42,808 nucleotides of DNA from a virus (Duplodnaviria > Caudoviricetes), in IMG/VR virus record IMGVR_UViG_3300032232_000888, positions 1 to 42,808 of that record; one strand, given 5' to 3'. The notes beneath the pieces were generated by a model. The model was not told the DNA's origin. It did no database searches and was given only the letters and a program-made list of their open reading frames with translations. Positions within the stretch are counted from its first letter, which is position 1, and each line of letters begins with the position of its first letter. Shown here one piece after another: positions 22,772 through 39,906 of the stretch. A program made the translations under genes and the position numbers.

Positions 22772-23001
22772 TAACTTTAGAAACAGATCCTGAAACTGGC
22801 GATCTTATCCTTCCTATCCCAACAGAGCTATTGTCTCAAATGGGATGGATCGAAGGAACAGAACTGTTTTGGATTGATAATGAGAATGGCACATACAGCC
22901 TGAAGGAAAAGAAAAATGGAACTAGTGAAGAGCAACGATCTGATACTGACGACTCCGTGTCAACAGTTCAACTTTCAGGATCCACCATTCGACCCGATTG
23001 A
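22765..23001 (+). CDS. AbrB/MazE/SpoVT-like small DNA-binding protein
   Basis: GDLILPIPTELLSQMGWIEGTEL resembles the swapped-hairpin motif; the C-terminal tail overlaps def. Confidence 0.6.
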   Translation: MVVTLETDPETGDLILPIPTELLSQMGWIEGTELFWIDNENGTYSLKEKKNGTSEEQRSDTDDSVSTVQLSGSTIRPD

Positions 23002-23452
23002 GTTTGCCAAAGAACTTGTATCTTTCATGTACGAGAGTAACGGTATTGGTCTTGCTGCTAATCAGGTAGGAGTTCCTTATCGTGTGTTCGCGATGCGTGG
23101 TTCTCCGGAAAACTTTGTCTGTTTCAACCCCAAGATCGTACAACCTTCAGAGGCTCAAGTTACCCTTGAAGAAGGGTGCTTGACTTTTCCAGGTTTAACG
23201 GTTAAAATAAAAAGACCACAACATGTTCGTGTTCGTTTCACGAAACCTAACAACGAAACTATTACTAGACAGTTTACAGGTATGACTGCTCGCATATTCC
23301 AACATGAACTAGACCATTTAGATGGTGTTGTGTTCTACAATAAAGCAAACAGATTTCATCGCGATAAAGCTTTAGAAAAGTGGCGGCGTGGTGATGTTTC
23401 GACATTAAACGTAAATACGGATCTTAGTAAATATGAATATCTTCTACGTTGA
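22916..23452 (+). CDS. def: Peptide deformylase
   Basis: All three PDF motifs present: GIGLAANQ, EGCL and QHELDH. Confidence 0.95.
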   Translation: MELVKSNDLILTTPCQQFNFQDPPFDPIEFAKELVSFMYESNGIGLAANQVGVPYRVFAMRGSPENFVCFNPKIVQPSEAQVTLEEGCLTFPGLTVKIKRPQHVRVRFTKPNNETITRQFTGMTARIFQHELDHLDGVVFYNKANRFHRDKALEKWRRGDVSTLNVNTDLSKYEYLLR

Positions 23453-23993
23453 TCATGACCCTATGAATGCAGCGGAAGCTTTAGTTGATAAGCACGTTGT
23501 TAAAATGATTCTCGAGAGCGCACAGCTGCTCTCGACTGCGCATCGTGTGCTCGATGGCGAGTTAGTTGATGGCATCAGAGTAAACTTAGATACAGGTAAA
23601 TCTCGCAAAACAAAGGCATATATACTTGCTGATGCTCGTGATTCAGTTATCTATTCTGCTACTCATATGAATCACCCATCGGCTGTTTGGTGTCGTAACT
23701 CTGTACAGAATTATGATTGGCTTGTTGATCATATGTTTGCATTAATGCGCGAGTACACTCATCGCTATGGTAAAACTCACAAGTGTTACGGTGAGATATC
23801 GTACATGCTGCAGTCTCCTCCAAAGAATCTTAAAGATTGGGACTGGACTCCGATGCCTTCTTGTATGGCAGATGAATATATTATTTCAGATGACCCCTTG
23901 ACTAATTACCGAAACTATTATAAGATTGGTAAATCGAATCTTCACAAATGGACTAACAGAGAACCTCCGGAGTGGATCAATGAGCAGGTATGA
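23433..23993 (+). CDS. Pyrimidine-dimer DNA glycosylase / endonuclease V (DenV)-family protein
   Basis: MNIF..D...DKHVVKMILESAQLLST, HMNHPSAVW, EYTHRYGKTH and YRNYY motifs. Confidence 0.75.
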   Translation: MNIFYVDHDPMNAAEALVDKHVVKMILESAQLLSTAHRVLDGELVDGIRVNLDTGKSRKTKAYILADARDSVIYSATHMNHPSAVWCRNSVQNYDWLVDHMFALMREYTHRYGKTHKCYGEISYMLQSPPKNLKDWDWTPMPSCMADEYIISDDPLTNYRNYYKIGKSNLHKWTNREPPEWINEQV

Positions 23994-24198
23994 TATGGGT
24001 AAATTTGAATGGGACTGGTTTATTGGTTGGACTGGTGCGACGGTAATAATTTTGGGTCTTGTAACTGCAATTTATTTTGGTTCTATTGATAATAGTCAAA
24101 AGTATTATGCATCAATGGATAAATGTATTGCTGCTGGTGGTTCATTCATTCCTATGCGTGGAAGTGAAGCAATTTGTATTCAGGGAATAAAGCAATGA
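23980..24198 (+). CDS. Hypothetical single-TM protein
   Basis: ATG at 23980 preceded by GGAG; hydrophobic segment followed by C..AGG...C. Confidence 0.55.
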   Translation: MSRYDMGKFEWDWFIGWTGATVIILGLVTAIYFGSIDNSQKYYASMDKCIAAGGSFIPMRGSEAICIQGIKQ

Positions 24199-24608
24199 GT
24201 TTTTATACAGACGTGCGAGATTTTCATCAGGCATTCGGGCAGCGTGTTGGCGAGAAGCCAGAGTTTCCTGATGGCGCGGAACGTTGTCTTAGAACGAGAC
24301 TTTTACAAGAAGAATTTGAAGAATATCTTTTAGCTGAAGGGCAAACCGACCTTGTTGAAGTTGCCGATGCACTTGCTGACATTATCTATATTGCTTGTGG
24401 CACTGCCGTTTCTTACGGTATTCCTTTGGACGATGTTTTTGCTGAGGTCCATCGAAGCAATATGGCAAAGCTTGTCGATGGCAAGGTAATTCGTCGTGCT
24501 GATGGTAAAGTACAGAAGCCAGAAGGCTGGACTGCTCCGGATATTAAGGGCGTATTAGAAAAGTCACACCAAGAATATATTTGTAAAATTGCATCAATCA
24601 CGCTATAA
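24195..24608 (+). CDS. MazG-like / PRA-PH-family NTP pyrophosphohydrolase
   Basis: LLQEEFEEY...VADALADIIY...EVHRSNMAK...DGKVQKP motifs. Confidence 0.85.
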   Translation: MSFYTDVRDFHQAFGQRVGEKPEFPDGAERCLRTRLLQEEFEEYLLAEGQTDLVEVADALADIIYIACGTAVSYGIPLDDVFAEVHRSNMAKLVDGKVIRRADGKVQKPEGWTAPDIKGVLEKSHQEYICKIASITL

Positions 24609-24650
24609 TACAAGTATATATACTAGACAATTCTAATACAGGAGGCATAA

Positions 24651-25952
24651 ATGGTAGAAGTACTTGTTCGTCAAAAAATTGATTCTGAAGAAACATTAGG
24701 CACATTCATTTCAAATAATTATTATGATCGTGTTATTGAAACTGATTGTGATCTTTATGCCTGGAATCAAACAGGTATCAACGACGAATCTAATATCATT
24801 TTCAAGTTTCGTAAAAACACATTTACGAAAGAAGAATGTGATGCTGCTTATGCTGGTCTCAGAGAAGCTGCAGTAGAATCACAAAATCGTGGTTTGGCTG
24901 CTGGCCCTCGTGGTGATTTCCTTGGTACAGCTGGTCGTGGTGGACGCGATTGGGTCACTGCTGAACATGAAGATATCTTGTTCTTCCTATCAAGAACAGT
25001 TAATTCTATTGATAGCGGAGATACCATAGATACTATTCGTCAAACTCACAAGAATAATCCTAGAGAAGAAACACGTGGTAGGGTTTGGCTTCGTTCAGAA
25101 GTAATGAAAGCATATCCTGAATATCATGGTTGGTTCGAAAGATGGCTTATTGATGTCGCTAGTATGTCTCGTGAAGAGCAGCGTAAAGAAGCCGAGTTTG
25201 TAATTGATAAGTATATTTCCGATACCAACTACGCTCAGTCAGTTATGTCTGGTATTGCTGGATACTTCGATCGTTATCCTCGCATTCCTTACGGTCGCGA
25301 AACATCATATACTGAGAAGAACCGCCAGAAGTTCGCTCTCTGTTATCCTTACCTTCAAAAACTTAACTCACAGTTTGCAAAACTGATTCCTAACAGATGG
25401 AAAGCGCAGAATGATCAAGCAAACAAACTTGACTCAAGATTCCGCATTGATGGCACTGTCTTTACTACTCTTACTGTTAACCACAATTGGCGTACTGCCT
25501 GCCATCGAGATGCTGGCGATCTTACTACTGGCTTCAGTAATATTTGTGGGGTTACTGGTCCAGAGGGTAAAGGATGGAGAGGTGGTCAGTTTATTCTTCC
25601 TGAGTACCGCATTGCAATTAATCTCCAGCCTGGTGATATGTTGCTTGTCAATAACCACGAAGGAATTCACGGAAACGATGAACTTATTGGCGATGATAAC
25701 GACCGTATGACTATCGTTGCGTACTTCCGTGAAAAGATGCTAGAGCTTAAGTCATGGGAATATGAGAACCTTCGTAAGCAGTTTGTTGACGAGAGGCGTT
25801 TGGACAAGAGTCATAAGTTTCAGCGCCCTCTTTGGAATGGTGTATCTCCTGGTATGTGGGAAGATCAAGAGTGGTACGATTACATGAAAACTCATAACAT
25901 CCCTAATCCTTATGCTAAGCAAGAAACTGCAAGCTTGGACGCATTCTTTTAA
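24651..25952 (+). CDS. TET/JBP-like 2OG-Fe(II) dioxygenase (candidate DNA base hydroxylase)
   Basis: VFTTLTVNHNWRTACHRDAGD (HxD), GDMLL...IHGN and RMTIVAYFRE match the TET/JBP clade pattern; first gene of the modification cluster. Confidence 0.75.
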   Translation: MVEVLVRQKIDSEETLGTFISNNYYDRVIETDCDLYAWNQTGINDESNIIFKFRKNTFTKEECDAAYAGLREAAVESQNRGLAAGPRGDFLGTAGRGGRDWVTAEHEDILFFLSRTVNSIDSGDTIDTIRQTHKNNPREETRGRVWLRSEVMKAYPEYHGWFERWLIDVASMSREEQRKEAEFVIDKYISDTNYAQSVMSGIAGYFDRYPRIPYGRETSYTEKNRQKFALCYPYLQKLNSQFAKLIPNRWKAQNDQANKLDSRFRIDGTVFTTLTVNHNWRTACHRDAGDLTTGFSNICGVTGPEGKGWRGGQFILPEYRIAINLQPGDMLLVNNHEGIHGNDELIGDDNDRMTIVAYFREKMLELKSWEYENLRKQFVDERRLDKSHKFQRPLWNGVSPGMWEDQEWYDYMKTHNIPNPYAKQETASLDAFF

Positions 25953-26629
25953 TGTGTGGCGTTCTTGGTATTGCTATTAAAAACTTCAAAGAGGAAGATC
26001 ACGATTTAGTTCGTGGTCTTTTCGTTCAATCTATGATTCGTGGTAAGCATGCGACTGGCGTTTCGTATGTAAAAAGTGGTATTGTAAATACTATTAAAGA
26101 ACCAATACCTGCTGACGAATTTATTGCGAAACAAAATTTAAACGATTGGAAAAATGAAGATGGAAATTTATATTGTGTTGGTCATATTAGGTACTCCACT
26201 TCTGACTTGCGTTTCAATCAGCCTATGGCTAGTGATAGGCTATCTATCGTCCACAACGGTATCATATCTCAAGAACCTCCTGAAACTTGGGAGGACAAAT
26301 ACAAACTCAGACCAGAAACCTCTAACGACTCCGAGCTTGTTCTGCGAGCAATGGAAGAAGATTTAAATCCTCTACATCATTTCGATCCTGCTTCGATGGC
26401 TGTTTGTGCTTTATATGATGATAAAAGATTAGTTGCATATCGCAATCATGAACGACCACTATACTATTCATTAAGTAATAACGGAATTGCTTTTGCATCA
26501 ACAGCGGATATCTTGAAAAGAGCTGGCTTTCCTTTTTCAGTAAAAGTTAACATGTATGAAATTAATACTATTGAAAATTTCGAAGTTTCAAGCTATACTA
26601 TAGATACTGATTATGAGGATTTACAATGA
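25952..26629 (+). CDS. Class-II (Ntn) glutamine amidotransferase
   Basis: N-terminal MCG, RG.HATG, GHIRYST, QP, HNGII and NDSE motifs. Confidence 0.88.
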   Translation: MCGVLGIAIKNFKEEDHDLVRGLFVQSMIRGKHATGVSYVKSGIVNTIKEPIPADEFIAKQNLNDWKNEDGNLYCVGHIRYSTSDLRFNQPMASDRLSIVHNGIISQEPPETWEDKYKLRPETSNDSELVLRAMEEDLNPLHHFDPASMAVCALYDDKRLVAYRNHERPLYYSLSNNGIAFASTADILKRAGFPFSVKVNMYEINTIENFEVSSYTIDTDYEDLQ

Positions 26630-27498
26630 ATTATAAACCAGAAAGCTTTACATGGGGTATGGAAATTGAGTGGGGCGACATTCCCCGCTCATTCATCATT
26701 CCGGAACACCTTGGTTCTTGGGAATATAGCGAACGCGATATTATCAATACCAAAGAGCCATACAAGAATGTTTGTGCTGACCCATTGGGTATTGAACCTC
26801 CTGTTGGTGGCGAGATCAATACAAAGCCAACCAAAACTTGGCAGGAACAGGTTGATAGGTATTTCGAGTTAAAACAATTGTTTGTAGATGCTGGTCATGA
26901 GCCAACCATTTGTACAACAACTCATACACACATTCATTGTTATGTTCCTGGGTTAAAAGAAAACGTAACGGCTCTTAAACGATTCTCAAAGTATGTTAAG
27001 GAAAATCAACATACAGCTATTGATTATGCTTATGGTTTTTATAACGTCGACGAAATGAAAGAAGTTAAAGGTGCAAAAACCTATCTTAAATACGATGGCG
27101 GTAGGTTTGTTCCTGATTACATTTGTGATAATATTATAAACCTAGCGACTAACTTTGATCATTTTATCAAGCTGCATGCTGCTGGTAAAGATGGTGTATC
27201 TATGGGTCGCCCGTTTCGTTATGGTATCAACACATATGCAATGAAACATATTGGCACAATTGAGTTTCGTTTCTTCAGAGCTTCTCTGGTTCGTGAGCAA
27301 ATTGAATCTTGTTTCCGATTCACTAGCGATTTTATTGCTGCAGCTCTTAACGATGGCCCTTCTGCTCGTGATTTGATTGCAAATAATAATTATAAATTCC
27401 CTCCAATGATTTGGAGCCTTGAACAATTTAAAGGTTGGGAGGCTACCAAACATCCGGAAGATAGAGGTAAGAAACAAAGGAAGTTCGTTGAGGTTTAA
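26626..27498 (+). CDS. Putative amidoligase (COOH-NH2 ligase superfamily)
   Basis: TWGMEIEW, GGEINT, HTHIH and GTIEFRFF motifs; adjacent to the GATase. Confidence 0.78.
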   Translation: MNYKPESFTWGMEIEWGDIPRSFIIPEHLGSWEYSERDIINTKEPYKNVCADPLGIEPPVGGEINTKPTKTWQEQVDRYFELKQLFVDAGHEPTICTTTHTHIHCYVPGLKENVTALKRFSKYVKENQHTAIDYAYGFYNVDEMKEVKGAKTYLKYDGGRFVPDYICDNIINLATNFDHFIKLHAAGKDGVSMGRPFRYGINTYAMKHIGTIEFRFFRASLVREQIESCFRFTSDFIAAALNDGPSARDLIANNNYKFPPMIWSLEQFKGWEATKHPEDRGKKQRKFVEV

Positions 27499-28021
27499 AT
27501 TTACAACCAGAGAAGAGTTTATTTCTTTCATAACAGATCGTAAAGAAGATAAGTTCGCCAAGACATTTGTTGCTAAATGCGACATGCTTAAGAAATGGGA
27601 TTGGGTGTTGGGTTTATGGGATGAGGATGAATTGTGCGGAGCTATTCTTGTTACGTATTCTAAACGTCAACCAATCGTAGCAAACCTACAACTTCTCCAT
27701 ACATTCTATAAACATCGTAACAAGGGCATTGCAAAATGCCTTTGTGATATAGCATTGGTTAATGCTTGCAAGCTTAAGGTAGATTATTTCCGAGTATCAG
27801 CTGATCCTGGAGCTATTAAATTCTATGAGAAAATTGGTTTAATGATGCTTGGGGAACAAAAGAGCAAATGCCAGCTTTCCATGTTTCGTATTACTTCTCC
27901 CTTCTTTGAAGAGAACGATTACGTCATTGATTCGTTCATATACAAACAGATGACGAGAAAAGGAAAGGGCGGATGCATTAAATTTTTTGTAGAGCATAAT
28001 TTCGCTTGCCTTCCAGAATAA
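27488..28021 (+). CDS. GNAT-family N-acetyltransferase
   Basis: LQLLHTFYKHRNKGIAK (acetyl-CoA motif A) and AIKFYEKIG (motif B); start uncertain (TTG 27488 vs 27419). Confidence 0.8.
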   Translation: MRFKFTTREEFISFITDRKEDKFAKTFVAKCDMLKKWDWVLGLWDEDELCGAILVTYSKRQPIVANLQLLHTFYKHRNKGIAKCLCDIALVNACKLKVDYFRVSADPGAIKFYEKIGLMMLGEQKSKCQLSMFRITSPFFEENDYVIDSFIYKQMTRKGKGGCIKFFVEHNFACLPE

Positions 28022-28034
28022 AATATGGTATTAT
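28006..28034 (+). promoter_or_regulatory. Sigma70-like promoter for the 28099 ORF
   Basis: TTGCCT-N17-TATTAT. Confidence 0.55.
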
Positions 28035-28098
28035 ATAATTCTTGAGCGATGAAAAGAAAACTCAAGAATTTTAAAATGGTCCAAAAAAGGAGAGACCT

Positions 28099-29421
28099 AT
28101 GAACTACGAAGCTATTTGTTATTACTGGCAGAATATTGAAACACAAGAGATTGTGTATCTTGGATATCATAAAACCGATGATGAAGACGGTGATTATTAT
28201 ACAGCCAGTACCGAGAACCCTGCATTCCACGATCTTTGGAATAAGGGTCTTTTGAAACGAGTCGTGTTTTTCAAAGGAACAGTTGAGCAGTGTGTGTCAT
28301 TCGAGCATTACATTCTTTCAAAAATGAACGCTAAACATAATACCATTATGTTCAACGAGTCCAATGGTGGTGGTGCTGGATGTAATTTAGTGCTTGTTAA
28401 CGATTTGATGAAAATTCAAGCTGACAAAGTTATTAGTGGACAATTTAAAAATTGTATTATACATCACAGTGAGTTGGAAAAAGTTATACAAGCTAAAGAA
28501 ATTTTAGAAAAAGTTAAAACAAATAACATGTTTAACTATTTTCAAACAGCAGAAGTTTATGTTGGTGAGCTGCGTAACATGCAGCGAATTCAAATTCGAC
28601 ATCAGCGTCGATTGCAAAATCATATTAATATGATTGCAGATAGAATGGCCGATCCTGCTGAAGCTCGTAAACACGTCAAGCCAGTAATTGTTGTTGTTTC
28701 TAGAAACAATGTTAAGAAAATTCTAAATGGTAATCATACTTTAGAAGCAGCAATTAAGGCAAAATGGACAACGTTGCCTGTTATGTATATACCTTCAGAA
28801 GAATTTAATGACGACTTTTCTACCATGGAACATTTTGGTAAAACCATTAATATAGTTCCAGAAGTTAGAGAAGGTAATTCCAAAGAAGATGTGAAGAGAA
28901 CTATTCTTTCTTTAAAAGAAAAAGGAATTTCATTTTATTCTGATGAGATGAAACTGATCCTACAAAATTTGTACAGTCAAGAATATTCATCAAGTTCAAT
29001 TTCTGGTTTGATCGCTGCTGTTCGTAAACAGCATTTTCTTGAACATGAAGGTTCTAAGTATAATTTCTATAATTATGATAAGGGTGAACTTGATTCTAGA
29101 GTCAATGATTATTTGACCGCTAATCCAAACAGTGGTTGTATCTCTCAATCTGCCGAAAGAGTAATTTTTGCTGGTATCGGCGGTGTTGTTAATAGCTTGC
29201 GCCAAAGAAGTAGAGATTGGAATAATCCAAAGGGTAAAATTTTTATTCACTATAGTAACATCAAAGATTGGCGAGATCGTGCAACAATAAATCGGGCGAT
29301 TGAAGATTGTTTGGAAATTGCTAAATTAAATTGGATCGAGCTTGAATATCTTCCTTGTTTCTATGATACAGAGAAAGATACTTTAACACATGAGCCGCCT
29401 GTTGCCTCAGAAGCAGCGTAA
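28099..29421 (+). CDS. GIY-YIG(Seg)-like N-terminal domain fused to a ParB/Srx-like domain
   Basis: CYYWQN...YLGYH...DYYTAS...E...FNESNG resembles Seg-type GIY-YIG; KPVIVV...ILNGNHTLEAA...LPV resembles the ParB/Srx core. Confidence 0.55.
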   Translation: MNYEAICYYWQNIETQEIVYLGYHKTDDEDGDYYTASTENPAFHDLWNKGLLKRVVFFKGTVEQCVSFEHYILSKMNAKHNTIMFNESNGGGAGCNLVLVNDLMKIQADKVISGQFKNCIIHHSELEKVIQAKEILEKVKTNNMFNYFQTAEVYVGELRNMQRIQIRHQRRLQNHINMIADRMADPAEARKHVKPVIVVVSRNNVKKILNGNHTLEAAIKAKWTTLPVMYIPSEEFNDDFSTMEHFGKTINIVPEVREGNSKEDVKRTILSLKEKGISFYSDEMKLILQNLYSQEYSSSSISGLIAAVRKQHFLEHEGSKYNFYNYDKGELDSRVNDYLTANPNSGCISQSAERVIFAGIGGVVNSLRQRSRDWNNPKGKIFIHYSNIKDWRDRATINRAIEDCLEIAKLNWIELEYLPCFYDTEKDTLTHEPPVASEAA

Positions 29422-30385
29422 GCAAGAATTTATCAATTGGTATCGCTGGTCGCTTTCTATCAAGGATTGCGATCCAGCGATATTCATGACGAACTACTTG
29501 TTCCGTAGGTTCGAGCATAACAGAGAACAAAAACTCTGGATTGCTTGGATCTATGGAACAACGTATTATCTTCCTACAACATGGGTGGTATGGAATGAAT
29601 TCCCAGATTTCGAACTCGTCGGTGTCGAACGACTCCGCGAATGGAACAATAACAATTACAAACGGCTCCGTTATCAAACTGACACCAAGTGGAACAAAGG
29701 TCATCTTCCAGCCCAGTTCGAAAGCTATAAGCAATGGGTTGGTGATAAGTCTCAACGCCAAGCATTTGAACAATTCCTTACAGGCACCCCAAGAGAAAAC
29801 TTCGAACAGCTCTGGCCAGAAGTAAAGAGCAAGTTCCACAAGTTTGGTAGATACTCAACTTGGTTTTATTTACAAACCCTTAAACAATGTTGCGATATGC
29901 CAATAGAACCGTCTACTCTTATGCTAGATGATCACGATGGTAGTCGTTCTCATCGTAATGGTTTGCTTATGGCTCTTGGGCTTGATGAATGGTACGATCA
30001 AAAACTTACACCATCTCAAGTAAACTATATTGAAGGTCAGGCTTATTATATCTTACAGGAAGTGAAACAGGAATTTCCTAACACCGACTATTTCGATATG
30101 GAAACCTGTTTGTGTTCATTCAAGAAATTATTCCGTAAGTCAAAGGGTAGATATCTTGGGTACTACCTTGATCGTCAGGCAGAAGAAATCCAGCAGTGTG
30201 AAAAAGATGGTTGGTTTGGTATTGACTGGCAACCATTATGGGATTCAAGAGTTGAAACTTTAGAAAATAAACTCTTGACTAATAAGATAGATAATAGTAA
30301 AATGAGTTTGTACCTTGATAATAATATACTAGATGCAACAGGACTTTTCGAAAAGAAAAGCGTTGGACTCGAGGAGTTTTTTTAA
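29390..30385 (+). CDS. aGPT-Pplase2 / amino-acid:DNA transferase-like protein (HhH-glycosylase fold)
   Basis: DCDP, KFGRYSTW, SHRNGL, METCLCSFKK and YLGYYLDR motifs; context of kinase plus TET-like gene. Confidence 0.72.
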   Translation: MSRLLPQKQRKQEFINWYRWSLSIKDCDPAIFMTNYLFRRFEHNREQKLWIAWIYGTTYYLPTTWVVWNEFPDFELVGVERLREWNNNNYKRLRYQTDTKWNKGHLPAQFESYKQWVGDKSQRQAFEQFLTGTPRENFEQLWPEVKSKFHKFGRYSTWFYLQTLKQCCDMPIEPSTLMLDDHDGSRSHRNGLLMALGLDEWYDQKLTPSQVNYIEGQAYYILQEVKQEFPNTDYFDMETCLCSFKKLFRKSKGRYLGYYLDRQAEEIQQCEKDGWFGIDWQPLWDSRVETLENKLLTNKIDNSKMSLYLDNNILDATGLFEKKSVGLEEFF

Positions 30386-30939
30386 TGAAGGTTATTGCTA
30401 TTGGTGGAGAGCCAGGTGCTGGCAAGTCCACTTTGATGAAACGTCTTATCAAAGAGTTTAATGTTGTTCCAAAATATAATGAGTATAAACTTGTACCATA
30501 TCTTCAATACTTCGAAATTTTTATTCTTGGTAAGTATGAAGAAGGCGAAGTGTTTTCTGGTACGGATAGAATGTCTATGGCGGTTCAGCCAGAGGCAATA
30601 AAATTCCTTGCCTATTTGCCAGAACATAGTATACTATTATATGAAGGCGATAGGTTATTCACATCATCGTTCCTTGAACATTGTGTTGAAAAATATGATA
30701 CTGAAATTATCTATTTGAAAACTGATAAGTCAGTTCGCCAGGATAGATATAAGGAACGTGGATCCGAGCAAAACGAAACTTGGCTTGCTGGTCGCGAAAC
30801 AAAGGTTTCAAATATTATGACTAACTTCGCTTTGATGTTTAATACAAAAACGTTTTCTAACAACACATTAGAAGAACAAGATGTAGTATTTGAATACATT
30901 AAAAATACAGTGAACAATGGTAAACATTATGAGCGATGA
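30385..30939 (+). CDS. P-loop nucleotide kinase (modification-cluster associated)
   Basis: GGEPGAGKST Walker A; GTDRMSMAVQP, EGDRL and RYKERGS motifs. Confidence 0.8.
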   Translation: MKVIAIGGEPGAGKSTLMKRLIKEFNVVPKYNEYKLVPYLQYFEIFILGKYEEGEVFSGTDRMSMAVQPEAIKFLAYLPEHSILLYEGDRLFTSSFLEHCVEKYDTEIIYLKTDKSVRQDRYKERGSEQNETWLAGRETKVSNIMTNFALMFNTKTFSNNTLEEQDVVFEYIKNTVNNGKHYER

Positions 30940-31327
30940 AACTAAACCATACGATCCATCGTTCAATCAAGCTTTGATTGTTTCTCCTCCTCCATATCCT
31001 TCTATTGAAGAACTTATCTCTATCTTTGTTAAAGAAAAGGAAACAGAAGTAATGATTTATAAATATGCCGAAAATGAAATTATCTCTGATTTTCATGACT
31101 ATATAGATAAGACGTATGAGGAACACTATAAGACAAATATGAAGAGCATTGAATGTTTTGATGCTTGGATCGCTCTTGGTGATTCGACCGATACGTTTCG
31201 TAACACAGCATTAAAGTATCTTTGGCGTTATGGAAAAAAGAACGGCAAGAATAAAGCTGATTTGATGAAGGCTCTACATTACACACTAATGTGTTTGTAT
31301 GTTGATCACTATAAGGATGATAAGTAA
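30917..31327 (+). CDS. DUF3310-like protein
   Basis: HY...IECFD...KYLWRYGKKNG...DLMKALHY motif; the true start may be ATG 31052 (AAGGA RBS). Confidence 0.75.
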   Translation: MVNIMSDETKPYDPSFNQALIVSPPPYPSIEELISIFVKEKETEVMIYKYAENEIISDFHDYIDKTYEEHYKTNMKSIECFDAWIALGDSTDTFRNTALKYLWRYGKKNGKNKADLMKALHYTLMCLYVDHYKDDK

Positions 31328-32181
31328 TGGAAATTAAGATTGATCTTGAAGCTCTTAGAAAGCGTGGATTGTTTCTAGCAACGCCTATGTATGGTGGTGC
31401 TTGTGCTGGTATGTTTGCTAAATCAACAGCAGATCTTTCGGCTCTGTGTACCCAGTATGGTATCCCTCTTCAGATGTACTTCTTGTTTAACGAGTCATTG
31501 ATTACTCGTGCAAGAAACTATTGCTGTGATGAGTTTATGCGTTCAACTTCTGAACACATGCTTTTCATTGACTCTGATATTGGATTTAATCCACAAGATG
31601 TTATTGCTATGATGGCTCTTCAGGCACAAGACGAAGAGAAGTATGAAATCATTGGTGGTCCTTATCCTAAGAAGTGCATTAGCTGGGAAAAGATTAAGTC
31701 TGCTGTTGATAAGGGTATTGCTGATGAAGATGCCAATGTTCTTGAAAAGTTTGTTGGTGACTTTGTTTTTAACCCAAAGGGTGGACAGCAGAGCATTGCT
31801 ATCGGCGAGCCTTGTGAAGTTTTAGAAATTGGTACAGGTTTCATGATGGTTACTAAGAAGGCGATGCAAAAGTTTGCTGACAAGTATCCTGAATACCTCT
31901 ATCGCCCCGATCATGTTCGCACTGAACATTTCGACGGTAGCCGTGAGATTATGATGTTCTTTCAGGCAGAGGTTGATCCTGTTTCTAAGCGTTATCTATC
32001 AGAAGATTATTGGTTCTGTCAGAAGGCACAAGCCGCTGATATTAAGACATGGTTCTGCCCATGGATGAAGCTCCAGCATGTTGGAACTTATATCTTTGGT
32101 GGATCATTGGCAGATCTAGCATCAATCGGTGCTGCTGCAACTGCTGACCCAGGTGCGCTTGGCGGCAAAAAGAAGAAGTGA
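31327..32181 (+). CDS. GT-A fold glycosyltransferase-like protein
   Basis: ATPMYGG, ESLITRARN, FIDSD (DxD), GTGFMM and LSEDYWFC motifs. Confidence 0.75.
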   Translation: MEIKIDLEALRKRGLFLATPMYGGACAGMFAKSTADLSALCTQYGIPLQMYFLFNESLITRARNYCCDEFMRSTSEHMLFIDSDIGFNPQDVIAMMALQAQDEEKYEIIGGPYPKKCISWEKIKSAVDKGIADEDANVLEKFVGDFVFNPKGGQQSIAIGEPCEVLEIGTGFMMVTKKAMQKFADKYPEYLYRPDHVRTEHFDGSREIMMFFQAEVDPVSKRYLSEDYWFCQKAQAADIKTWFCPWMKLQHVGTYIFGGSLADLASIGAAATADPGALGGKKKK

Positions 32182-32197
32182 GAAAGGGAACTACATT

Positions 32198-32851
32198 ATG
32201 AAAATTGATGCATACACAATCGGTATTTTGAAGAACTTTGCTAAGATTAATCCTTCTATTCTTGTTCAAGAAGGAAATACTTTGAAGACAATCTCAACTT
32301 CAAAGACAATCATGGCTAGGGCGCATGTTACAACTCAGTTTGATACGCGATTTGCTATCTATAATCTTGATCAGTTTATTTCAACACTTAGTATCTTCAA
32401 CGATCCAGAGTTGACGTTTTTTGATAAGGAAGTAAAAATTTCTGATAAGAAAATGAATATGAACTTTAAATATGCTGATGAGAATACTGTAACTAAGGTT
32501 CCTGAAAAGGAAATCAACTTACCTTCAATTGAAGTTTCGTTTAATCTTACTAACGAAAACTTGAAGGATGTTGAACGAGCTATTGGTATTCTTGGTTTGC
32601 CTGAAATTGTTGTTACTGGTGATGGTACAAACATTTTCTTGCAGGGTGTTGATAGTAAGAACATTTCTGGTCATGTTTTTTATATCAATATTGGCACAAC
32701 TGATAAGGTATTCAAGGCTATCTTTAAGTCAGAAAATATTAAGGTAATTCCAGGTGATTATGAAGTTTCTATTTCCTCTCGTGGTATTTCCCACTTCAAG
32801 GGAAGTGAAGCAGAGTACTGGATTGCTGTTGAGCAAACGTCAACTTTCTAA
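32198..32851 (+). CDS. gp45: Sliding clamp, gp45
   Basis: ILKNFAKINPSI, FAIYNLDQF and YWIAVE motifs; ATG at 32198; precedes the clamp loader. Confidence 0.92.
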   Translation: MKIDAYTIGILKNFAKINPSILVQEGNTLKTISTSKTIMARAHVTTQFDTRFAIYNLDQFISTLSIFNDPELTFFDKEVKISDKKMNMNFKYADENTVTKVPEKEINLPSIEVSFNLTNENLKDVERAIGILGLPEIVVTGDGTNIFLQGVDSKNISGHVFYINIGTTDKVFKAIFKSENIKVIPGDYEVSISSRGISHFKGSEAEYWIAVEQTSTF

Positions 32852-32852
32852 G

Positions 32853-32881
32853 TTGACTTTTATTTCGGGAGGGTTTATAAT
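32853..32881 (+). promoter_or_regulatory. Sigma70-like promoter upstream of gp44
   Basis: TTGACT-N17-TATAAT. Confidence 0.7.
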
Positions 32882-32895
32882 AACCCTCCCTTTTT
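32867..32895 (+). terminator. Intrinsic terminator-like hairpin after gp45
   Basis: GGGAGGGTT-TATAAT-AACCCTCCC followed by TTTTT. Confidence 0.7.
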
Positions 32896-32910
32896 ATTAT
32901 GGAGCATGTG

Positions 32911-33849
32911 ATGAACGAAGAATTTCTTTGGGTCGAAAAGTATCGCCCGAAAACAATTGATGACACCATCCTTCCTGTTGATTTGAAGGCAACCTTTCAA
33001 CAGTTTGTTGATCAAAAGAATATCCCTAACCTTATCCTATCTGGTAGTGCTGGCGTTGGTAAAACGACAGTAGCCCGTGCTATGCTTGAACAGCTGGGAT
33101 GCGACTACATTGTAATTAACGGATCTATGAATGGCAATATTGACACCCTCCGAAACGAAATCCTCAACTTCGCCAGTACAGTGTCCTTCTCAGGTGGACG
33201 CAAGTACGTTATCCTTGATGAGGCAGACTATCTCAACGCAAATTCTACACAGCCCGCACTACGTAACTTTATGGAAGAATTCTCAAGGAACTGCGGATTC
33301 ATTCTCACATGTAATTTTAAGAACCGGATTATCGAGCCACTCCACTCTCGGTGTTCTGTAATTGATTTCAAGATCAGCAAGAAGGATATGGTCAAGCTCG
33401 CATTGCAGTTTATGAAGCGAGTTAACTTTATCCTCAATACAGAAAACGTTAAGTATGAATCAGCTGTAATTGCTGAGGTGATTCAGAAGCACTTCCCTGA
33501 CTGGCGTCGTGTACTCAATGAGCTTCAGCGGTATGCGGTGTCAGGTAAGATCGATTCTGGCATTCTTGCTAATATGCAGGACAACAGTATCCGAGAACTA
33601 ATTCATTTTATGAAGGATAGAGATTTTACTGAGGTTCGTAAATGGGTAAAAAACAATCTTGATACAGACGTCAATGTTTTGTATAACCAGTTCTATGATT
33701 CTGCTTCTGACTATTTCACACCTGATAGCATTCCTATGTTGGTGTTGCATATCGCAACCTATCAATACCAGAATGCGTTTTCTGCCAATCCTGAAATCAA
33801 CTTCTCTGCATTCTGTGCGCATGTTATGCTTGACCTTGAGTTCGTCTGA
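32911..33849 (+). CDS. gp44: Clamp loader large subunit, gp44
   Basis: LWVEKYRP, GSAGVGKTT, ILDEAD and SRC motifs. Confidence 0.96.
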   Translation: MNEEFLWVEKYRPKTIDDTILPVDLKATFQQFVDQKNIPNLILSGSAGVGKTTVARAMLEQLGCDYIVINGSMNGNIDTLRNEILNFASTVSFSGGRKYVILDEADYLNANSTQPALRNFMEEFSRNCGFILTCNFKNRIIEPLHSRCSVIDFKISKKDMVKLALQFMKRVNFILNTENVKYESAVIAEVIQKHFPDWRRVLNELQRYAVSGKIDSGILANMQDNSIRELIHFMKDRDFTEVRKWVKNNLDTDVNVLYNQFYDSASDYFTPDSIPMLVLHIATYQYQNAFSANPEINFSAFCAHVMLDLEFV

Positions 33850-34319
33850 TGTTTTTAGATGTAACGCTAGAGCCAAGGAAAGTTGAAGTAGTAATTGAGG
33901 AAGAAGAAAAGAGATACGATTGGTGTTATGAAAACAGTATAAATTTTGGTAAAGTTCTTATAGACCTAGACAAGCCTCAAGAGTTTAAATATAATAAATG
34001 GCGCACCAACAGTTCTTTGTCTATGCACAAGGATACTATTGATGTTGCTCAGAAAATGAATCAGAATCACCACCTTTCTGATAAGCTTCATTATCATTTT
34101 CTTTTCCATAAGGTTCGTAAACAAAAACGGTATGGTAAAAAGAAAACCGAGGCAGAAAAGAAGCTCGAGAAGCAACTCGAGCAAGAAGCTAAGATAATCT
34201 CTTTAATCCAAGATTATTATAAATATAATATTGTGCGAGCGAAAGAGGCGTACAAGATCCTAACGAAGGATCAGATTGAATTGATTAAACAAAAACAAGA
34301 AAAAGGTGGAGCTAAATGA
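33849..34319 (+). CDS. gp62: Clamp loader small subunit, gp62
   Basis: Position between gp44 and regA; N..LS...D, HYHFLF..VRK and YY.YN..RAKE motifs. Confidence 0.85.
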   Translation: MFLDVTLEPRKVEVVIEEEEKRYDWCYENSINFGKVLIDLDKPQEFKYNKWRTNSSLSMHKDTIDVAQKMNQNHHLSDKLHYHFLFHKVRKQKRYGKKKTEAEKKLEKQLEQEAKIISLIQDYYKYNIVRAKEAYKILTKDQIELIKQKQEKGGAK

Positions 34320-36878: not shown

Positions 36879-36953
36879 GGACTCTTAGCGCAATGGTAGA
36901 GCATCGGACTTTTAATCCGCTGGTTCCGGGTTCGAGTCCCGGAGAGTCCACCA
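36879..36953 (+). tRNA. tRNA-Lys(UUU)
   Basis: Cloverleaf, loop CTTTTAA, TTCGAGT T-loop, encoded CCA. Confidence 0.93.
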
Positions 36954-36956
36954 TAA

Positions 36957-37029
36957 TTGCTTGTAGGGAGAGCCGAGTCGCTCCCGCATGTATTGGAGAG
37001 GCGTAAGCCTGGCGGTATACAGCAAGCAA
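36957..37029 (+). ncRNA. Small multibranch structured RNA between tRNAs
   Basis: TTGCTTG/CAAGCAA closing stem; GGGAG/CTCCC, TGTAT/ATACA and AGGC-GTAA-GCCT hairpins. Confidence 0.45.
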
Positions 37030-37038
37030 ACTATATAC

Positions 37039-37113
37039 TGGCGTATAGCTCAGTGGTAGAGCACTGTCCTGATAAGACAGGGGTCAATGGATCGTAACCA
37101 TTTACGCCAACCA
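37039..37113 (+). tRNA. tRNA-Ile(GAU)
   Basis: Cloverleaf, loop CTGATAA, atypical T-loop ATCGTAA, CCA. Confidence 0.88.
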
Positions 37114-37117
37114 ATAA

Positions 37118-37194
37118 CGGAGATTGGCTCAGTCTGGTAGAGCATTCGCTTTGGGAGCGAAGGGTCGCAGGTTCGAATCCTGCATCTCCGACCA
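37118..37194 (+). tRNA. tRNA-Pro(UGG)
   Basis: Cloverleaf, loop TTTGGGA, CCA. Confidence 0.94.
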
Positions 37195-37200
37195 AATAAC

Positions 37201-37290
37201 GGAAGAATGGCCGAGTGGTTGATGGCTCTAGTCTTGAAAACTAGCATACCTGCAAGGGTATCGTGGGTTCGAATCCTACTTCTTCCGCCA
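37201..37290 (+). tRNA. tRNA-Ser(UGA)
   Basis: Cloverleaf with long variable arm, loop CTTGAAA, G73, CCA. Confidence 0.94.
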
Positions 37291-37304
37291 TAAATAAAAG
37301 AATT

Positions 37305-37391
37305 GAGTAGGCTGCAGAGACGGTGGACTGCAACGGACTGTAAATCCGTCCTCTAAGAGCGTTGTGGGTTCGAATCCTACCCTACTCACCA
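37305..37391 (+). tRNA. tRNA-Tyr(GUA)
   Basis: Loop CTGTAAA, long variable arm, CCA. Confidence 0.9.
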
Positions 37392-37397
37392 TAATAT

Positions 37398-37475
37398 CCT
37401 CTGTTAGTGTAGCGGTCTAACATACCCGCCTTTCAAGCGCGGAGATCATCGGTTCAAATCCGATACAGAGGACCA
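37398..37475 (+). tRNA. tRNA-Glu(UUC)
   Basis: Loop CTTTCAA, imperfect anticodon stem, TTCAAAT T-loop, CCA. Confidence 0.85.
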
Positions 37476-37481
37476 AATAAT

Positions 37482-37557
37482 GGACCGATAGCTCAGTTGG
37501 TAGAGCAGCCGACTCTTAATCGGCTTGTCGTGGGTTCGATCCCCTCTCGGTCTACCA
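37482..37557 (+). tRNA. tRNA-Lys(CUU)
   Basis: Loop CTCTTAA, CCA. Confidence 0.93.
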
Positions 37558-37567
37558 AAAATAACGC

Positions 37568-37596
37568 TTGACTATATACATTAGGCGTTATATACT
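37568..37596 (+). promoter_or_regulatory. Sigma70-like promoter for the OMP gene
   Basis: TTGACT-N17-TATACT. Confidence 0.8.
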
Positions 37597-37633
37597 ATGT
37601 AAGTATGTGTATCAATAAACAAAGGAAAGAAAT

Positions 37634-38167
37634 ATGAACAAGCTTATTATCTCATTCGTCGCTCTTGTTGCTGCTACAGCCGCAAATGCTACAGACCTAC
37701 CTTCAAAGTCAACCCCAACTCCTCCTAAGAAGCCAGCTCTTGCTGACACTGAAAAGAATGTTTACGGTGGACTTAATGGTGGTTTCGTTGTAACTGACGG
37801 TATCAATAAGAATAGCCCATGGACAATTGGTCTTGTTGGTGGTTATAATGTGTATCGTTTCGCTGGCATTAATGTTGCTGCTGAAGGTACTTATGACTAT
37901 TCAAAGGGTGAAGTAAACACTCTTGCTATCAATTCTGTTGTTGGTTATGATGCTCCTTTCGTAATTCCTTATGCTCTAGTAGGTGTTGGGTATCGTACTC
38001 AGTCACATAACGATAGAAACATTTGGAACTATGGTGGTGGTTTGAAGTACAACCTCACCTCTTCTCTTGAACTTGATGGTCGTTACCGTCGCACCGAAGA
38101 TCTTAAGACCAAGCCAAACAGCAAGGCTGAAGATCGTGTGACTCTTGGTGTGAACTATAAGTTCTAA
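37634..38167 (+). CDS. Outer-membrane beta-barrel protein (Omp25/RopB/OmpA-TM-like)
   Basis: Signal peptide ending ANA followed by TDLP; alternating beta strands (YGGLNGG, GGGLKY, LDGRY); C-terminal LGVNYKF BAM signal. Confidence 0.85.
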   Translation: MNKLIISFVALVAATAANATDLPSKSTPTPPKKPALADTEKNVYGGLNGGFVVTDGINKNSPWTIGLVGGYNVYRFAGINVAAEGTYDYSKGEVNTLAINSVVGYDAPFVIPYALVGVGYRTQSHNDRNIWNYGGGLKYNLTSSLELDGRYRRTEDLKTKPNSKAEDRVTLGVNYKF

Positions 38168-38174
38168 AACTTAT

Positions 38175-38250
38175 TCCGCGATAGCTCAGTTGGTAGAGCG
38201 TCTGACTGTTAATCAGAATGTCCCTGGTTCGAGCCCAGGTCGTGGAGCCA
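38175..38250 (+). tRNA. tRNA-Asn(GUU)
   Basis: Loop CTGTTAA, G73, CCA. Confidence 0.94.
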
Positions 38251-38254
38251 ATAA

Positions 38255-38329
38255 GGTCCGTTAGCTCAGCGGGAGAGCAACTCCTTTACACGGAGAAGGT
38301 CGGCGGTTCAATCCCGTCACGGACTACCA
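38255..38329 (+). tRNA. tRNA-Val(UAC)
   Basis: Loop TTTACAC, CCA. Confidence 0.93.
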
Positions 38330-38334
38330 CTATT

Positions 38335-38410
38335 GGGGATATAGCTCAGTTGGGAGAGCGTCTGATTTGCATTCAGAAGGTCTGCGGTTCGATCCCGCAT
38401 GTCTCCACCA
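38335..38410 (+). tRNA. tRNA-Ala(UGC)
   Basis: Loop TTTGCAT, G3:U70 pair, CCA. Confidence 0.94.
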
Positions 38411-38412
38411 AA

Positions 38413-38645
38413 ATCAAGACCCGACGGGATTAATTAAATGGGTACTCGTCTAATAGTTAGGACTGCTGGCAAAGCCGATAAATACCACCCATGGTTGTGC
38501 AGGACACTAGGTATCTTGATCGAGCAATCACAGGCTGCTCGTTAATCCGATGCTGTGCGGGTGGTTACTGGTTACACTCCTAAGCAGCAGGAACCTTAAA
38601 GGTTGGTCGCTCAATAGACTCGCGGAGAGCCACGGTTAGTTCTCC
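38413..38645 (+). ncRNA. Unassigned structured non-coding segment between tRNA-Ala and tRNA-Thr
   Basis: ATCAAGA/TCTTGAT closes 38413-38520 with an inner ATGGGT/ACCCAT; further hairpins GAGCA/TGCTC, TGCTG/CAGCA, AACC/GGTT and GGAGA/TCTCC. Confidence 0.4.
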
Positions 38646-38653
38646 ACTTATTC

Positions 38654-38729
38654 GCTGGTTTAGCTCAGTAGGTAGAGCACCTGTTTTGTAATCAGGATGT
38701 CGTGAGTTCGATTCTTACAACCAGCACCA
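38654..38729 (+). tRNA. tRNA-Thr(UGU)
   Basis: Loop TTTGTAA, CCA. Confidence 0.92.
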
Positions 38730-38735
38730 GTTTAT

Positions 38736-38810
38736 TGCGGGGTGGAGCAGTAGAAGCTCGTTTGGCTCATACCCAAAAGGTCGAAGGTGCAATTCCTTCC
38801 CCCGCTTCCA
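38736..38810 (+). tRNA. tRNA-Met(CAU), initiator-like
   Basis: Loop CTCATAC; 1:72 T:T mismatch; GCGGGG-TGGAGCAG 5' end resembles tRNA-fMet; atypical T-loop TGCAATT. Confidence 0.85.
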
Positions 38811-38814
38811 AATT

Positions 38815-38889
38815 GATCCTGTACGCATCTGGTGAGGCGACCCCGCTGTCTACGGGGTGAGGAGGGTTCGATTCCCTTCAGGATCGCCA
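38815..38889 (+). tRNA. tRNA-Asp(GUC)
   Basis: Loop CTGTCTA, G73, CCA. Confidence 0.9.
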
Positions 38890-38892
38890 TAA

Positions 38893-39025
38893 TTGTGGTA
38901 AGGAAAGCCTATGGATTACCACTCGCTGCAGCAGTGTGTATGATAGGGTCGGAGTAATTAACCGACAAAAGGAGAATGGGAAGCTTGAACCGATAGGCGA
39001 AAGTCAGATACCTCACCTGCCACAA
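38893..39025 (+). ncRNA. Unassigned structured RNA between tRNA-Asp and tRNA-Gln
   Basis: TTGTGGTA/TGCCACAA terminal stem, GCCTAT/ATAGGC inner stem and GTCGG/CCGAC hairpin. Confidence 0.5.
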
Positions 39026-39036
39026 CGAATAAATAT

Positions 39037-39111
39037 TGGGGATTAGTTAAATTGGTATAACGGAGGATTCTGACTCCTTTGTTCGAGGTTCGAGTCCTTG
39101 ATCCCCAGCCA
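39037..39111 (+). tRNA. tRNA-Gln(CUG)
   Basis: U1:A72, loop TTCTGAC, G73, CCA. Confidence 0.92.
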
Positions 39112-39162
39112 ATTTAGAGTTTATTATATAAAAGAACTTAAATATAAAAAGGATATTATATA

Positions 39163-39684
39163 ATGTTCATGTTCTCGGTGCCTTGTGTTATATTGCAATG
39201 TCAAGATTGGCCATCTAAAAAACAAAAATTGATTGAGTTGTGCTCATTACAGTCAATAGAATCTGGCGAAGAAAAAGTGATAATGTCAGATTATCATTCA
39301 AACAATTCATACTCTGATCAAATAGCTAATATTTTCAAAGACGAGATCAATGAATTCTTGAACAGATTGCAAATAACTAACATTATTAAGATTGATAAAT
39401 CGTGGTTTGAAGTTGCTAAAAAGGGGATGCATCATCCTGTACACAATCATGGTGCAATTGGTTATAGTGTTGTTTGCTACATCGAGTACAATCAACATCT
39501 TCATACACCAACAACATTTCTTGCTCCTTTCAATAATTTTTTAAATGGAGGGCATCTAGAATTTACTCCCAATGTGGATGAGGGTATAATAATTTTCTTT
39601 CCTAGTGTTCTTCATCATTATACAATGCCAAATACAAGTGATGTTGATAGAAAGATTATATCATTTAATTTGGTGCCTGAGTAG
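39163..39684 (+). CDS. Putative 2OG-Fe(II) oxygenase (TIGR02466-like)
   Basis: KSWF...HPVHNHG..GYSVVCY...EGIIIFFPSVLHHYT.PN....RKIISFN motifs. Confidence 0.82.
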   Translation: MFMFSVPCVILQCQDWPSKKQKLIELCSLQSIESGEEKVIMSDYHSNNSYSDQIANIFKDEINEFLNRLQITNIIKIDKSWFEVAKKGMHHPVHNHGAIGYSVVCYIEYNQHLHTPTTFLAPFNNFLNGGHLEFTPNVDEGIIIFFPSVLHHYTMPNTSDVDRKIISFNLVPE

Positions 39685-39746
39685 GACGGTAATGCGCAGG
39701 TCTGCAAAACCTTGAGAACCCAGTTCAACTCTGGGAGGCACCTCCA
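39672..39746 (+). tRNA. tRNA-Cys(GCA)
   Basis: Loop CTGCAAA, U73, CCA; its 5' end overlaps the oxygenase ORF end. Confidence 0.88.
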
Positions 39747-39753
39747 AACTAAT

Positions 39754-39828
39754 GCGGGTATAGCTCAGTGGTAGAGCACTTCGTTGCCAACGAAGATGTC
39801 GTCGGTTCGACCCCGATTGCCCGCTCCA
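39754..39828 (+). tRNA. tRNA-Gly(GCC)
   Basis: Loop TTGCCAA, U73, CCA. Confidence 0.94.
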
Positions 39829-39829
39829 T

Positions 39830-39906
39830 GTTCCGATAGCTCAACTGAATAGAGCACTGGTCTACGAAACCAGAGGTTGAGGGTTTGAGTCCTTCTCGGA
39901 ACACCA
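39830..39906 (+). tRNA. tRNA-Arg(ACG)
   Basis: Loop CTACGAA, CCA; D-loop GA instead of GG and T-loop TTTGAGT. Confidence 0.9.

Follow-up and report, generated by a model that had tools for sequence, protein, structure and literature searches.

The chemistry by which a kinase and an amino-acid:DNA transferase (AADT) act on 5-hydroxymethyluracil (5hmU) is established (Lee et al. 2021, PMC8989533). The same study reports metavirome contigs on which TET_JBP genes stand with 5-HMUDK and aGPT-Pplase2 genes; amidoligase and amidotransferase genes are co-associated, with no function or product stated. Clade C1 and C2 phage dioxygenases oxidize T, and genes for glutamine amidotransferases (GATases), for P-loop kinases, and for AADTs lie beside those of clade C1 (O'Toole et al. 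2026, PMC13229309). Here and below, statements about both studies refer to their accessible portions. We examined a cassette led by a TET/JBP dioxygenase gene in IMG/VR record IMGVR_UViG_3300032232_000888, whose 42,808 bases, the whole of the record, represent part of the genome of a T4-like myophage (hereafter, the window). The cassette very probably encodes post-replicative thymine hypermodification of the published kind, a kind that is already in print in both studies without a product. We further propose, at about even confidence, that ammonia is delivered to the AADT to give 5-aminomethyl-deoxyuridine (5-aminomethyl-dU), which would then be acylated by an amidoligase and a GNAT.

Like the clusters of Lee et al., the window carries a TET gene instead of a dUMP hydroxymethylase gene, a kinase–AADT core, and amidoligase and glutamine amidotransferase genes nearby. 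It shares GATases, P-loop kinases, and AADTs with the C1 neighborhoods of O'Toole et al. Unlike the C1 enzymes described there, the window TET is 433 aa long, contains a large insertion, ends in a tail of the clamp-binding type, and has no short cognate ParB. The term "amidoligase" has 0 occurrences in 12 supplements of that study. An earlier reading made from the letters of the window (the sequence-only reading) knew of no chemically determined product for this combination, and none was found in the accessible literature, most subscription journals and bioRxiv supplements lying outside reach; within the same limits, no paper on an amidotransferase-fed ammonia route was found. That reading called such neighborhoods computationally predicted. 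They are indeed published, but they have moved beyond prediction, as related phage T-dioxygenases are active (PMC13229309). Both studies flag amidotransferase genes beside thymine-modifying enzymes with their role unstated, and natural drop-outs make that role testable.

Composition of the cassette

Ten ORFs, all on the + strand, lie within 24195–32181 and overlap at 7 of 9 junctions (−1 to −32 nt). The sequence-only reading had described nine mostly overlapping or abutting genes; all nine are present on that strand, but a tenth ORF (28099–29421) had been missed. Contigs of run X1 tile positions 23000–34000 with 0 differing letters; X1 is possibly the source, so the agreement checks the assembly only. 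The genes that concern us first are the following.

24651..25952, + strand: TET/JBP (5mYOX) Fe/2-oxoglutarate (2OG) dioxygenase, 433 aa, clade-C1-like long form (PF12851, E 4.5e-20)
25952..26629, + strand: stand-alone class-II (N-terminal nucleophile, Ntn) glutamine amidotransferase, PurF-like glutaminase domain (PF13522, GATase_6, E 4.4e-11)
26626..27498, + strand: amidoligase (carboxylate–amine ligase, glutamine synthetase/glutamate–cysteine ligase fold; ESM Atlas 0.98, fold match)
27488..28021, + strand: GNAT acyltransferase (PF13673, Acetyltransf_10, E 6.7e-9), open frame from 27419
29390..30385, + strand: amino-acid:DNA transferase (aGPT-Pplase2/AADT; PF18724, ADDT, E 2.4e-24)
30385..30939, + strand: P-loop 5hmU DNA kinase, 5-HMUDK family (PF18751, Ploopntkinase3, E 2.7e-13)

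The families named in the sequence-only reading largely survive. The MazG-like, Tet_JBP, GATase, GNAT, AADT, and kinase proteins score above their Pfam cut-offs and DUF3310 falls just under its own; the amidoligase is recognized by ESM Atlas and by fold, without a Pfam match, and the GT-A assignment is weakly supported. The GNAT family is borne out, with its start probably at TTG 27488, downstream of a ribosome-binding-like site. ESM Atlas groups the amidoligase, which has no Pfam match and no PDB sequence match, with clusters in which 30–78% of members bear Amidoligase_2. Its AlphaFold2 model (pLDDT 91.7) resembles glutamine synthetase, glutamate–cysteine ligase, and PafA folds, with 1tt4 as the best match (Z 11.0, rmsd 4.0 Å, 215 aligned residues). 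Residues E13, E15, E63, H102, H104, R198, E213, and R215 (ExE, E, HxH, R, ExR) are unchanged in 24/24 sequences. At E 1e-5, the amidoligase has no match among 50,697 phage records.

The target base

The window TET scores 72 bits in Pfam against a cut-off of 34.9, and its Fe/2OG motif (HxD...H...R; H285, D287, H340, R352) is unchanged in 14/14 aligned sequences. By eye, its SGIAGYFDRYPRIPYGR motif agrees with the C1 rows, not the C2 rows, of Dataset S11 of O'Toole et al., and its neighborhood of GATase, kinase, and AADT genes is of the C1 type. The C1 enzyme tested in that study makes 5hmU as its main product (PMC13229309), and by analogy the window TET likely turns T into 5hmU in DNA.

The target itself is read from near-complete relatives of the window, which is a 42.8-kb fragment. 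Genomes G001 (162 kb, 98% complete, bearing the window's cassette) and G002 (100% complete) encode ThyX. Neither PF00303 (thyA fold) nor PF00145 (C5-methyltransferase) matched any of five records that include G001 and G002, with controls matched in 10/14 and 9/14, respectively, and PF00303 was also not found in G012 (96% complete). G001 has 150 ORFs of at least 120 aa; 109 of them were run against Pfam, and no second TET, AADT, or hydroxymethylase appeared among these. With no thyA-fold enzyme, G001 and G002 should lack a dUMP/dCMP hydroxymethylase; with ThyX present and both hydroxymethylase and C5-methyltransferase absent, ordinary dTTP would be incorporated, and T in DNA, oxidized after replication, is the likely target. 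Pre-replicative synthesis of 5hmU or 5-hydroxymethylcytosine was rejected on the evidence of these relatives. Post-replicative hydroxylation followed by phosphorylation and substitution, as the sequence-only reading had it, thus agrees with the intact active-site residues and with the search of G001 and G002 for dUMP/dCMP hydroxymethylases and C5-methyltransferases, where neither was found.

A different outcome of the oxidation step was weighed. The TET could carry T on to 5-formyl- or 5-carboxyuracil, or act on host-made 5-methylcytosine (5mC), and the GATase and amidoligase would amidate the carboxy base beside, or in place of, the kinase and AADT. Phage 5mYOX enzymes do oxidize iteratively and accept 5mC in vitro (PMC13229309). 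However, the kinase and AADT are strictly co-retained, a C5-methyltransferase is missing from 2/2 near-complete relatives, and the C1 enzyme that was tested makes mainly 5hmU, making this the least probable of the readings considered here.

Linkage of the amidotransferase to the transferase

Viral-contig loci were anchored on TET (66), amidoligase (best 80 of 107), AADT (77), and GATase (12), a sample that deliberately favors amidoligase loci and whose shares are not natural frequencies. Linkage was counted over the 96 loci with a distinct TET and a downstream boundary, the rest being duplicates or cut short. A window-type AADT is encoded in 64 of these 96, clade membership being taken from a quick version of the AADT tree used for that purpose only. 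The GATase accompanies it in 64/64 and occurs in 0/32 of the others. The metagenome scan with the AADT alignment found 528 stretches encoding a relative of the window AADT; among the best 80, some of which overlap the viral set, the GATase is in view in 59 and the remaining 21 end upstream.

The amidoligase behaves differently, being missing from 36 of the 59 metagenome loci with a GATase. A scan with the GNAT of amidoligase-less loci added 68 new loci, 62 of them GATase–GNAT without an amidoligase in view and 6 cut. The amidoligase profile matched 0/5 host records of amidoligase-less cassettes, one of them 96% complete, and the same profile matched G009. The GNAT is missing in 2/64 cassettes, which have a glycosyltransferase–amidoligase–phosphatase set, leaving TET, kinase, and AADT as the only partners always present with the GATase. 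The amidoligase is therefore a facultative tailoring enzyme, and because it is dispensable and the GATase is not, the GATase needs another acceptor. AADTs 87–89% identical to that of the window sit with the glycosyltransferase/amidoligase/phosphatase set, and one 82% identical goes with a lone GNAT. Since near-identical AADTs are found with different tailoring sets, it is improbable that the AADT takes as its substrate something made by the swappable genes. The sequence-only reading had treated GATase, amidoligase, and GNAT as one amine-building unit; this is not supported, as many amidoligase-less loci still pair a GATase with the AADT and close AADTs serve another tailoring set.

The five-gene version TET–GATase–GNAT–AADT–kinase, with a clamp-tailed GNAT, is common (L199, L369, and about 70 similar loci). 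Two cassettes bear two different amidoligases each (L221:3559-6090 and L080:800-2619), which suggests two successive ligations. The slot after the TET is itself swappable and holds a TET-associated glycosyltransferase, a methyltransferase with another AADT, an inositol synthase with an AADT, or the GATase type. The long TET heads at least six other cassettes (seen in L001, L007, L008, L009, L012, L018, and L031): the TAGT glycosyltransferase; a methyltransferase with another AADT; an FkbM methyltransferase with an AADT and inositol-1-phosphate synthase; an N6/N4-methyltransferase-like protein with an AADT; an uncharacterized pair of 324 and 147 aa; and a 346-aa protein with a kinase.

A proposed ammonia route

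By analogy with the characterized enzymes, the window AADT likely replaces the phosphate of phosphorylated 5hmU (5-PmU). It has the helix-hairpin-helix fold of its family. Its E238-T239-x-x-C242 is unchanged in 52/52 sequences and has the spacing of E243/T244/C247 in PaMx11 gp46, for which an E-T-x-x-C catalytic motif is described (gp46/gp47 structure paper). The top three Foldseek matches of the AADT model (pLDDT 92.6) are all PaMx11 gp46 (E 0.006–0.018, TM 0.52–0.57). Although the folds match, the profile alignment with gp46 is not significant, so that the gp46 glycine-binding residues D24, W146, and K150 could not be mapped onto the AADT; a PDB search with the AADT profile gave no matches. 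The adjoining kinase gene encodes a protein that scores 50.3 bits against a Pfam cut-off of 27 and is 30% identical to PaMx11 gp49 (E 3e-6).

In the GATase, C2, R30, H78, R80, T83, N102, G103, and D126 are unchanged in 52/52 aligned sequences, so that the N-terminal Cys and the glutamine-binding residues (R, T, NG, D) are all kept. All 8 PDB matches of its profile are PurF, and the protein is likely an ammonia source. In PurF, the ammonia displaces a pyrophosphate leaving group. Ammonia can also act as the nucleophile at a uracil C5-methylene, as MnmEG does in tRNA. An obligate GATase, a dispensable amidoligase, retained glutamine-binding residues, and PDB matches confined to PurF together argue for ammonia as the AADT nucleophile.

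The pathway would then run as follows. The TET would produce 5hmU from T in replicated DNA, and the kinase would phosphorylate it. The GATase would free ammonia from glutamine, and the AADT would exchange the phosphate for ammonia through the exocyclic-methylene intermediate described for these enzymes (Lee et al. 2021, PMC8989533; gp46/gp47 structure paper), yielding 5-aminomethyl-dU. The amidoligase and GNAT would acylate the 5-aminomethyl group, in a presumed order. The acyl group may be glutamate, a guess from the amidoligase fold, which would give γ-glutamyl- or N-acetyl-γ-glutamyl-aminomethyl-dU, and the modification would presumably shield the DNA from host nucleases. The predicted product of the five-gene version is 5-acetylaminomethyl-dU (299.11 Da); for the window version, the acylated base should have a mass of 386.14 or 428.15 Da.

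The same gene pattern could follow from γ-glutamyl protection and deprotection, along EgtA/EgtC or mercapturate lines. A γ-glutamyl compound, for example γ-Glu-Cys, would come from the amidoligase or from the host and be attached by the AADT; the GATase would remove the glutamyl group and the GNAT would acetylate the amine so exposed. This would equally explain why the GATase is obligate and the amidoligase dispensable, as well as the one natural GATase–GNAT fusion found, and the best fold matches of the amidoligase are YbdK-like and glutamate–cysteine ligases. Yet the GATase is PurF-like in 8/8 PDB matches, and the EgtC-like family GATase_4 was not matched by it in Pfam at E 0.01. The GATase would also have to act on DNA while lacking the C-terminal tail discussed below (0/79). 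We regard this route as quite unlikely.

Clamp-type C-terminal tails

T4 gp43, gp55, and gp33 bind gp45 through short hydrophobic, acidic C-terminal motifs (T4 late-gene review), and three relatives have DNA polymerases whose C-terminus reads L-E-D-F-F. Only the TET (SLDAFF) and the AADT (GLEEFF) bear a polymerase-like tail among 60 window ORFs. Counted over the loci, with a tail pattern loosened after a first look at the data, the tail is present in 93/112 distinct TET ends and 64/80 AADT ends, against 10/554 for unlabelled ORFs. It occurs in 1/84 kinases and in no GATase (0/79), GT-A protein (0/61), or amidoligase (0/68). By analogy, we infer that the TET and AADT dock on the gp45 clamp.

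The GNATs divide by cassette. In amidoligase-less cassettes, the GATase is followed by a different GNAT, which is tailed in 5/5 viral loci and 66/70 metagenome loci; those behind an amidoligase are tailed in 4/70. A tail on the GNAT of the amidoligase-less cassettes is consistent with an enzyme that acetylates an amine on DNA, in the way that PaMx11 gp48 acetylates 5-aminomethyl-dU (5-NmdU; PMC8989533). A broader possibility, which we advance tentatively, is that the window-type AADT clade comprises ammonia:DNA transferases with their own PurF-like glutaminase, riding the gp45 clamp with the TET behind the fork, and that 5-aminomethyl-dU is a hub decorated by the swappable slot. The decorations would be acetyl in the five-gene version, γ-glutamyl or acetyl-glutamyl in the window, and a sugar in other phages.

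Several observations favor another assignment, along the lines of the sequence-only reading, in which the AADT transfers an amino acid (e.g., serine) or a pre-built amine. Either ahead of this transfer or following it, a carboxylate would be amidated by the GATase and amidoligase, and the GNAT would put an acetyl group on the amine. GATase and amidoligase are a textbook amidating pair, and the amidoligase directly follows the GATase in most window-like loci. The window amidoligase and GNAT are tailless, which would fit action on small molecules, although tail absence is weak evidence because the kinase is tailless too. The closest AADT among the cultured phages aligned is CBA120 orf248 (28% over 313 columns, E 1e-28), which we take to be an orthologue of the ViI gp247 serine transferase. 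Every characterized AADT takes an amino acid or a polyamine (putrescine) (Lee et al. 2021, PMC8989533). On the other side, amino-acid transfer provides no acceptor for the GATase in many amidoligase-less cassettes, and near-identical AADTs accompany different tailoring sets; on balance, we find it rather unlikely.

The observations that favor amino-acid transfer count against the ammonia route, and others stand beside them. A GATase–AADT fusion was not found among 478 longer candidates, a weak search, and distant GATases are present in 170 phage records, many of them LUZ24-like. Linked genes share history, and since related phages do as well, the linkage counts are not independent events. The window TET, at 433 aa, exceeds the roughly 290–330 aa of the Dataset S11 enzymes, and clade C1 members lacking a ParB showed no activity when tested earlier in E. 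coli (PMC13229309).

The ParB-like insert

The ORF missed earlier separates the GNAT and AADT genes.

28099..29421, + strand: 440-aa ORF with a GIY-YIG-like N-terminus and a ParB/Noc-like domain (PHROG ParB-like, E 1.6e-5)

Its PDB matches are Noc/ParB proteins (best E 9e-4), and GIY-YIG is matched by 3/18 aligned members of its family, not by the window's own protein. Among the 64 window-type cassettes, this gene is found in 29, another ParB-like fusion in 7, and neither in 28. Comparison with the four nearest relatives gives 23–27% identity for this protein, against 65–97% for their other genes and 81–91% for their TETs. It has no match in complete G002 or in Cr30, and PF02195 exceeded its threshold in 0/5 genomes. 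Such a pattern marks a facultative, fast-diverging gene, likely a mobile nuclease gene. Runs X2, X3, and X12 leave it partly or wholly uncovered, and no listed contig spans it; these runs were not used as evidence. The site directly upstream of the AADT gene holds two ParB-like fusions, one GIY-YIG-like (window 28099-29421) and one with an HNH-like motif recognized by eye (L065:2579-4048), and both resemble free-standing homing endonucleases.

The ParB/Noc-like domain raises the alternative that the insert is a required activator of the dioxygenase, like ParB176 for 5mYOX176, and that the cassette has seven parts. Dependence on ParB is indeed known for clade C1 enzymes with linked GATase, kinase, and AADT genes (PMC13229309). 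A required partner is hard to reconcile with absence from 28/64 cassettes and replacement by another fusion in 7, with such divergence between phages whose TETs are close, or with the failed searches of G002, Cr30, and, by PF02195, all five genomes. The five ParBs in Dataset S11 are also about 200–240 aa long against 440 aa for the insert (PMC13229309). A short cognate ParB, comprising a nucleotide-binding and a dimerization domain, was not found near the TET, where the nuclease–ParB-like fusion stands instead. We list a required activator among the rejected readings and consider it very unlikely.

Flanking genes and phage context

Three genes of the run flank the cassette.

24195..24608, + strand: MazG-like nucleotide pyrophosphohydrolase (PF01503, PRA-PH, E 2.1e-21)
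30917..31327, + strand: DUF3310 protein (PF11753, E 7.3e-5, 23.2 bits against 24, under the cut-off)
31327..32181, + strand: conserved GT-A-like protein with an invariant DxD, adjoining gp45 (Anp1, E 0.005)

The sequence-only reading had counted all three as pathway members, but none co-varies with the cassette. MazG lies upstream of the TET in 20/37 GATase-type, 12/14 other-AADT, and 7/9 AADT-less loci. Among loci extending as far as gp45, these three types carry the GT-A gene in 40/41, 11/11, and 9/9 cases, respectively, and DUF3310 in 22/41, 11/11, and 8/9. The MazG gene follows regA in both Cr30 and DLP6, phiM12 has the GT-A gene between gp46 and gp45 without the cassette, and 63 phage records match the GT-A protein compared with 9 for the TET. 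Because the three genes are retained when relatives swap the cassette, they are probably flanking backbone genes; their presence with every cassette type speaks against them as pathway steps, a reading that was rejected, and the pathway comprises six genes rather than nine. The GT-A profile had no relevant PDB match, two weak xylanase matches not being meaningful. In one relative (L143:6269-6655), a dATP/dGTP diphosphohydrolase (PF18909, E 1e-34) replaces DUF3310 between the kinase and GT-A genes, hinting that this slot houses nucleotide-pool hydrolases.

Along the window, genes for neck, terminase, tail, and head proteins precede uvsY, uvsW, gp55, gp47, and gp46, which are followed by gp45-44-62-regA and a tRNA array. 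The window also encodes a peptide deformylase and an outer-membrane β-barrel protein, and its TET and GT-A proteins are 41–64% identical to homologues in Caulobacter phage Cr30 and Stenotrophomonas phage DLP6; these features suggest a proteobacterial host. Close strains are present in two runs from a single study, with lake or freshwater as their label. Relative G001 carries a pmoC/amoC gene (L153:2301-3062; PF04896, E 5e-109), seen in 1/5 relatives tested; such genes are known from pmoC-phages of methanotrophs.

The tRNA array (36879-42793) contains 19 tRNAs by ARAGORN and one more by Rfam at 39672-39743, together with the β-barrel gene (37634-38167) and a 2OG-Fe oxygenase gene (39163-39684). 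A 78-nt tRNA at 37398-37475 has a UCA anticodon; ARAGORN labels it tRNA-SeC, yet its length is ordinary, and it is possibly an opal-suppressor or Trp tRNA. TGA recoding, considered because of this tRNA, was rejected, as 19/53 genes terminate in TGA. A sigma-70 promoter scan gave 41 sites against 39.0 expected and is uninformative. The sequence TATAAATA, which we take to be the T4 late-promoter consensus, occurs at 8 sites in the window, all on the + strand, against 3.7 expected. One of these, at 31058-31065, lies inside the DUF3310 gene and upstream of the GT-A gene, and may merely reflect a Tyr-Lys-Tyr codon run.

Implications and comparison with known systems

If the ammonia route holds, a new activity would join those of known DNA-modifying enzymes, with a glutamine amidotransferase acting on DNA and an undescribed base in a widespread phage group. 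It would also allow DNA to be labelled through primary amines introduced at T and would explain how post-replicative modifiers keep pace with replication.

Set against characterized pathways, the window recombines familiar parts. Phage PaMx11 makes 5-acetylaminomethyl-dU (5-AcNmdU) with the gp49 kinase, the gp46 glycine transferase, the gp47 flavin lyase, and the gp48 acetyltransferase. Kinase, AADT fold, and a GNAT are common to both and, on our reading, so is the 5-aminomethyl-dU intermediate. In PaMx11, however, a thymidylate-synthase-family gene adjoins the cluster and the amine arises by glycine transfer and oxidation, whereas the window cassette includes a TET, lacks a flavin lyase, and has a GATase and amidoligase in addition. 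The pathway of ViI and CBA120 to 5-(2-aminoethoxy)methyl-deoxyuridine (5-NeOmdU) supplies the nearest cultured AADT among those aligned (28%) and, unlike the window, uses pre-replicative 5hmU and a pyridoxal-phosphate decarboxylase (PMC8989533). Cr30 and DLP6 are T4-like, encode the window's long TET subfamily (41–47% identity), and have the GT-A gene near gp45. Their cassettes differ from that of the window; in Cr30, a cultured phage, another AADT clade is combined with inositol-1-phosphate synthase.

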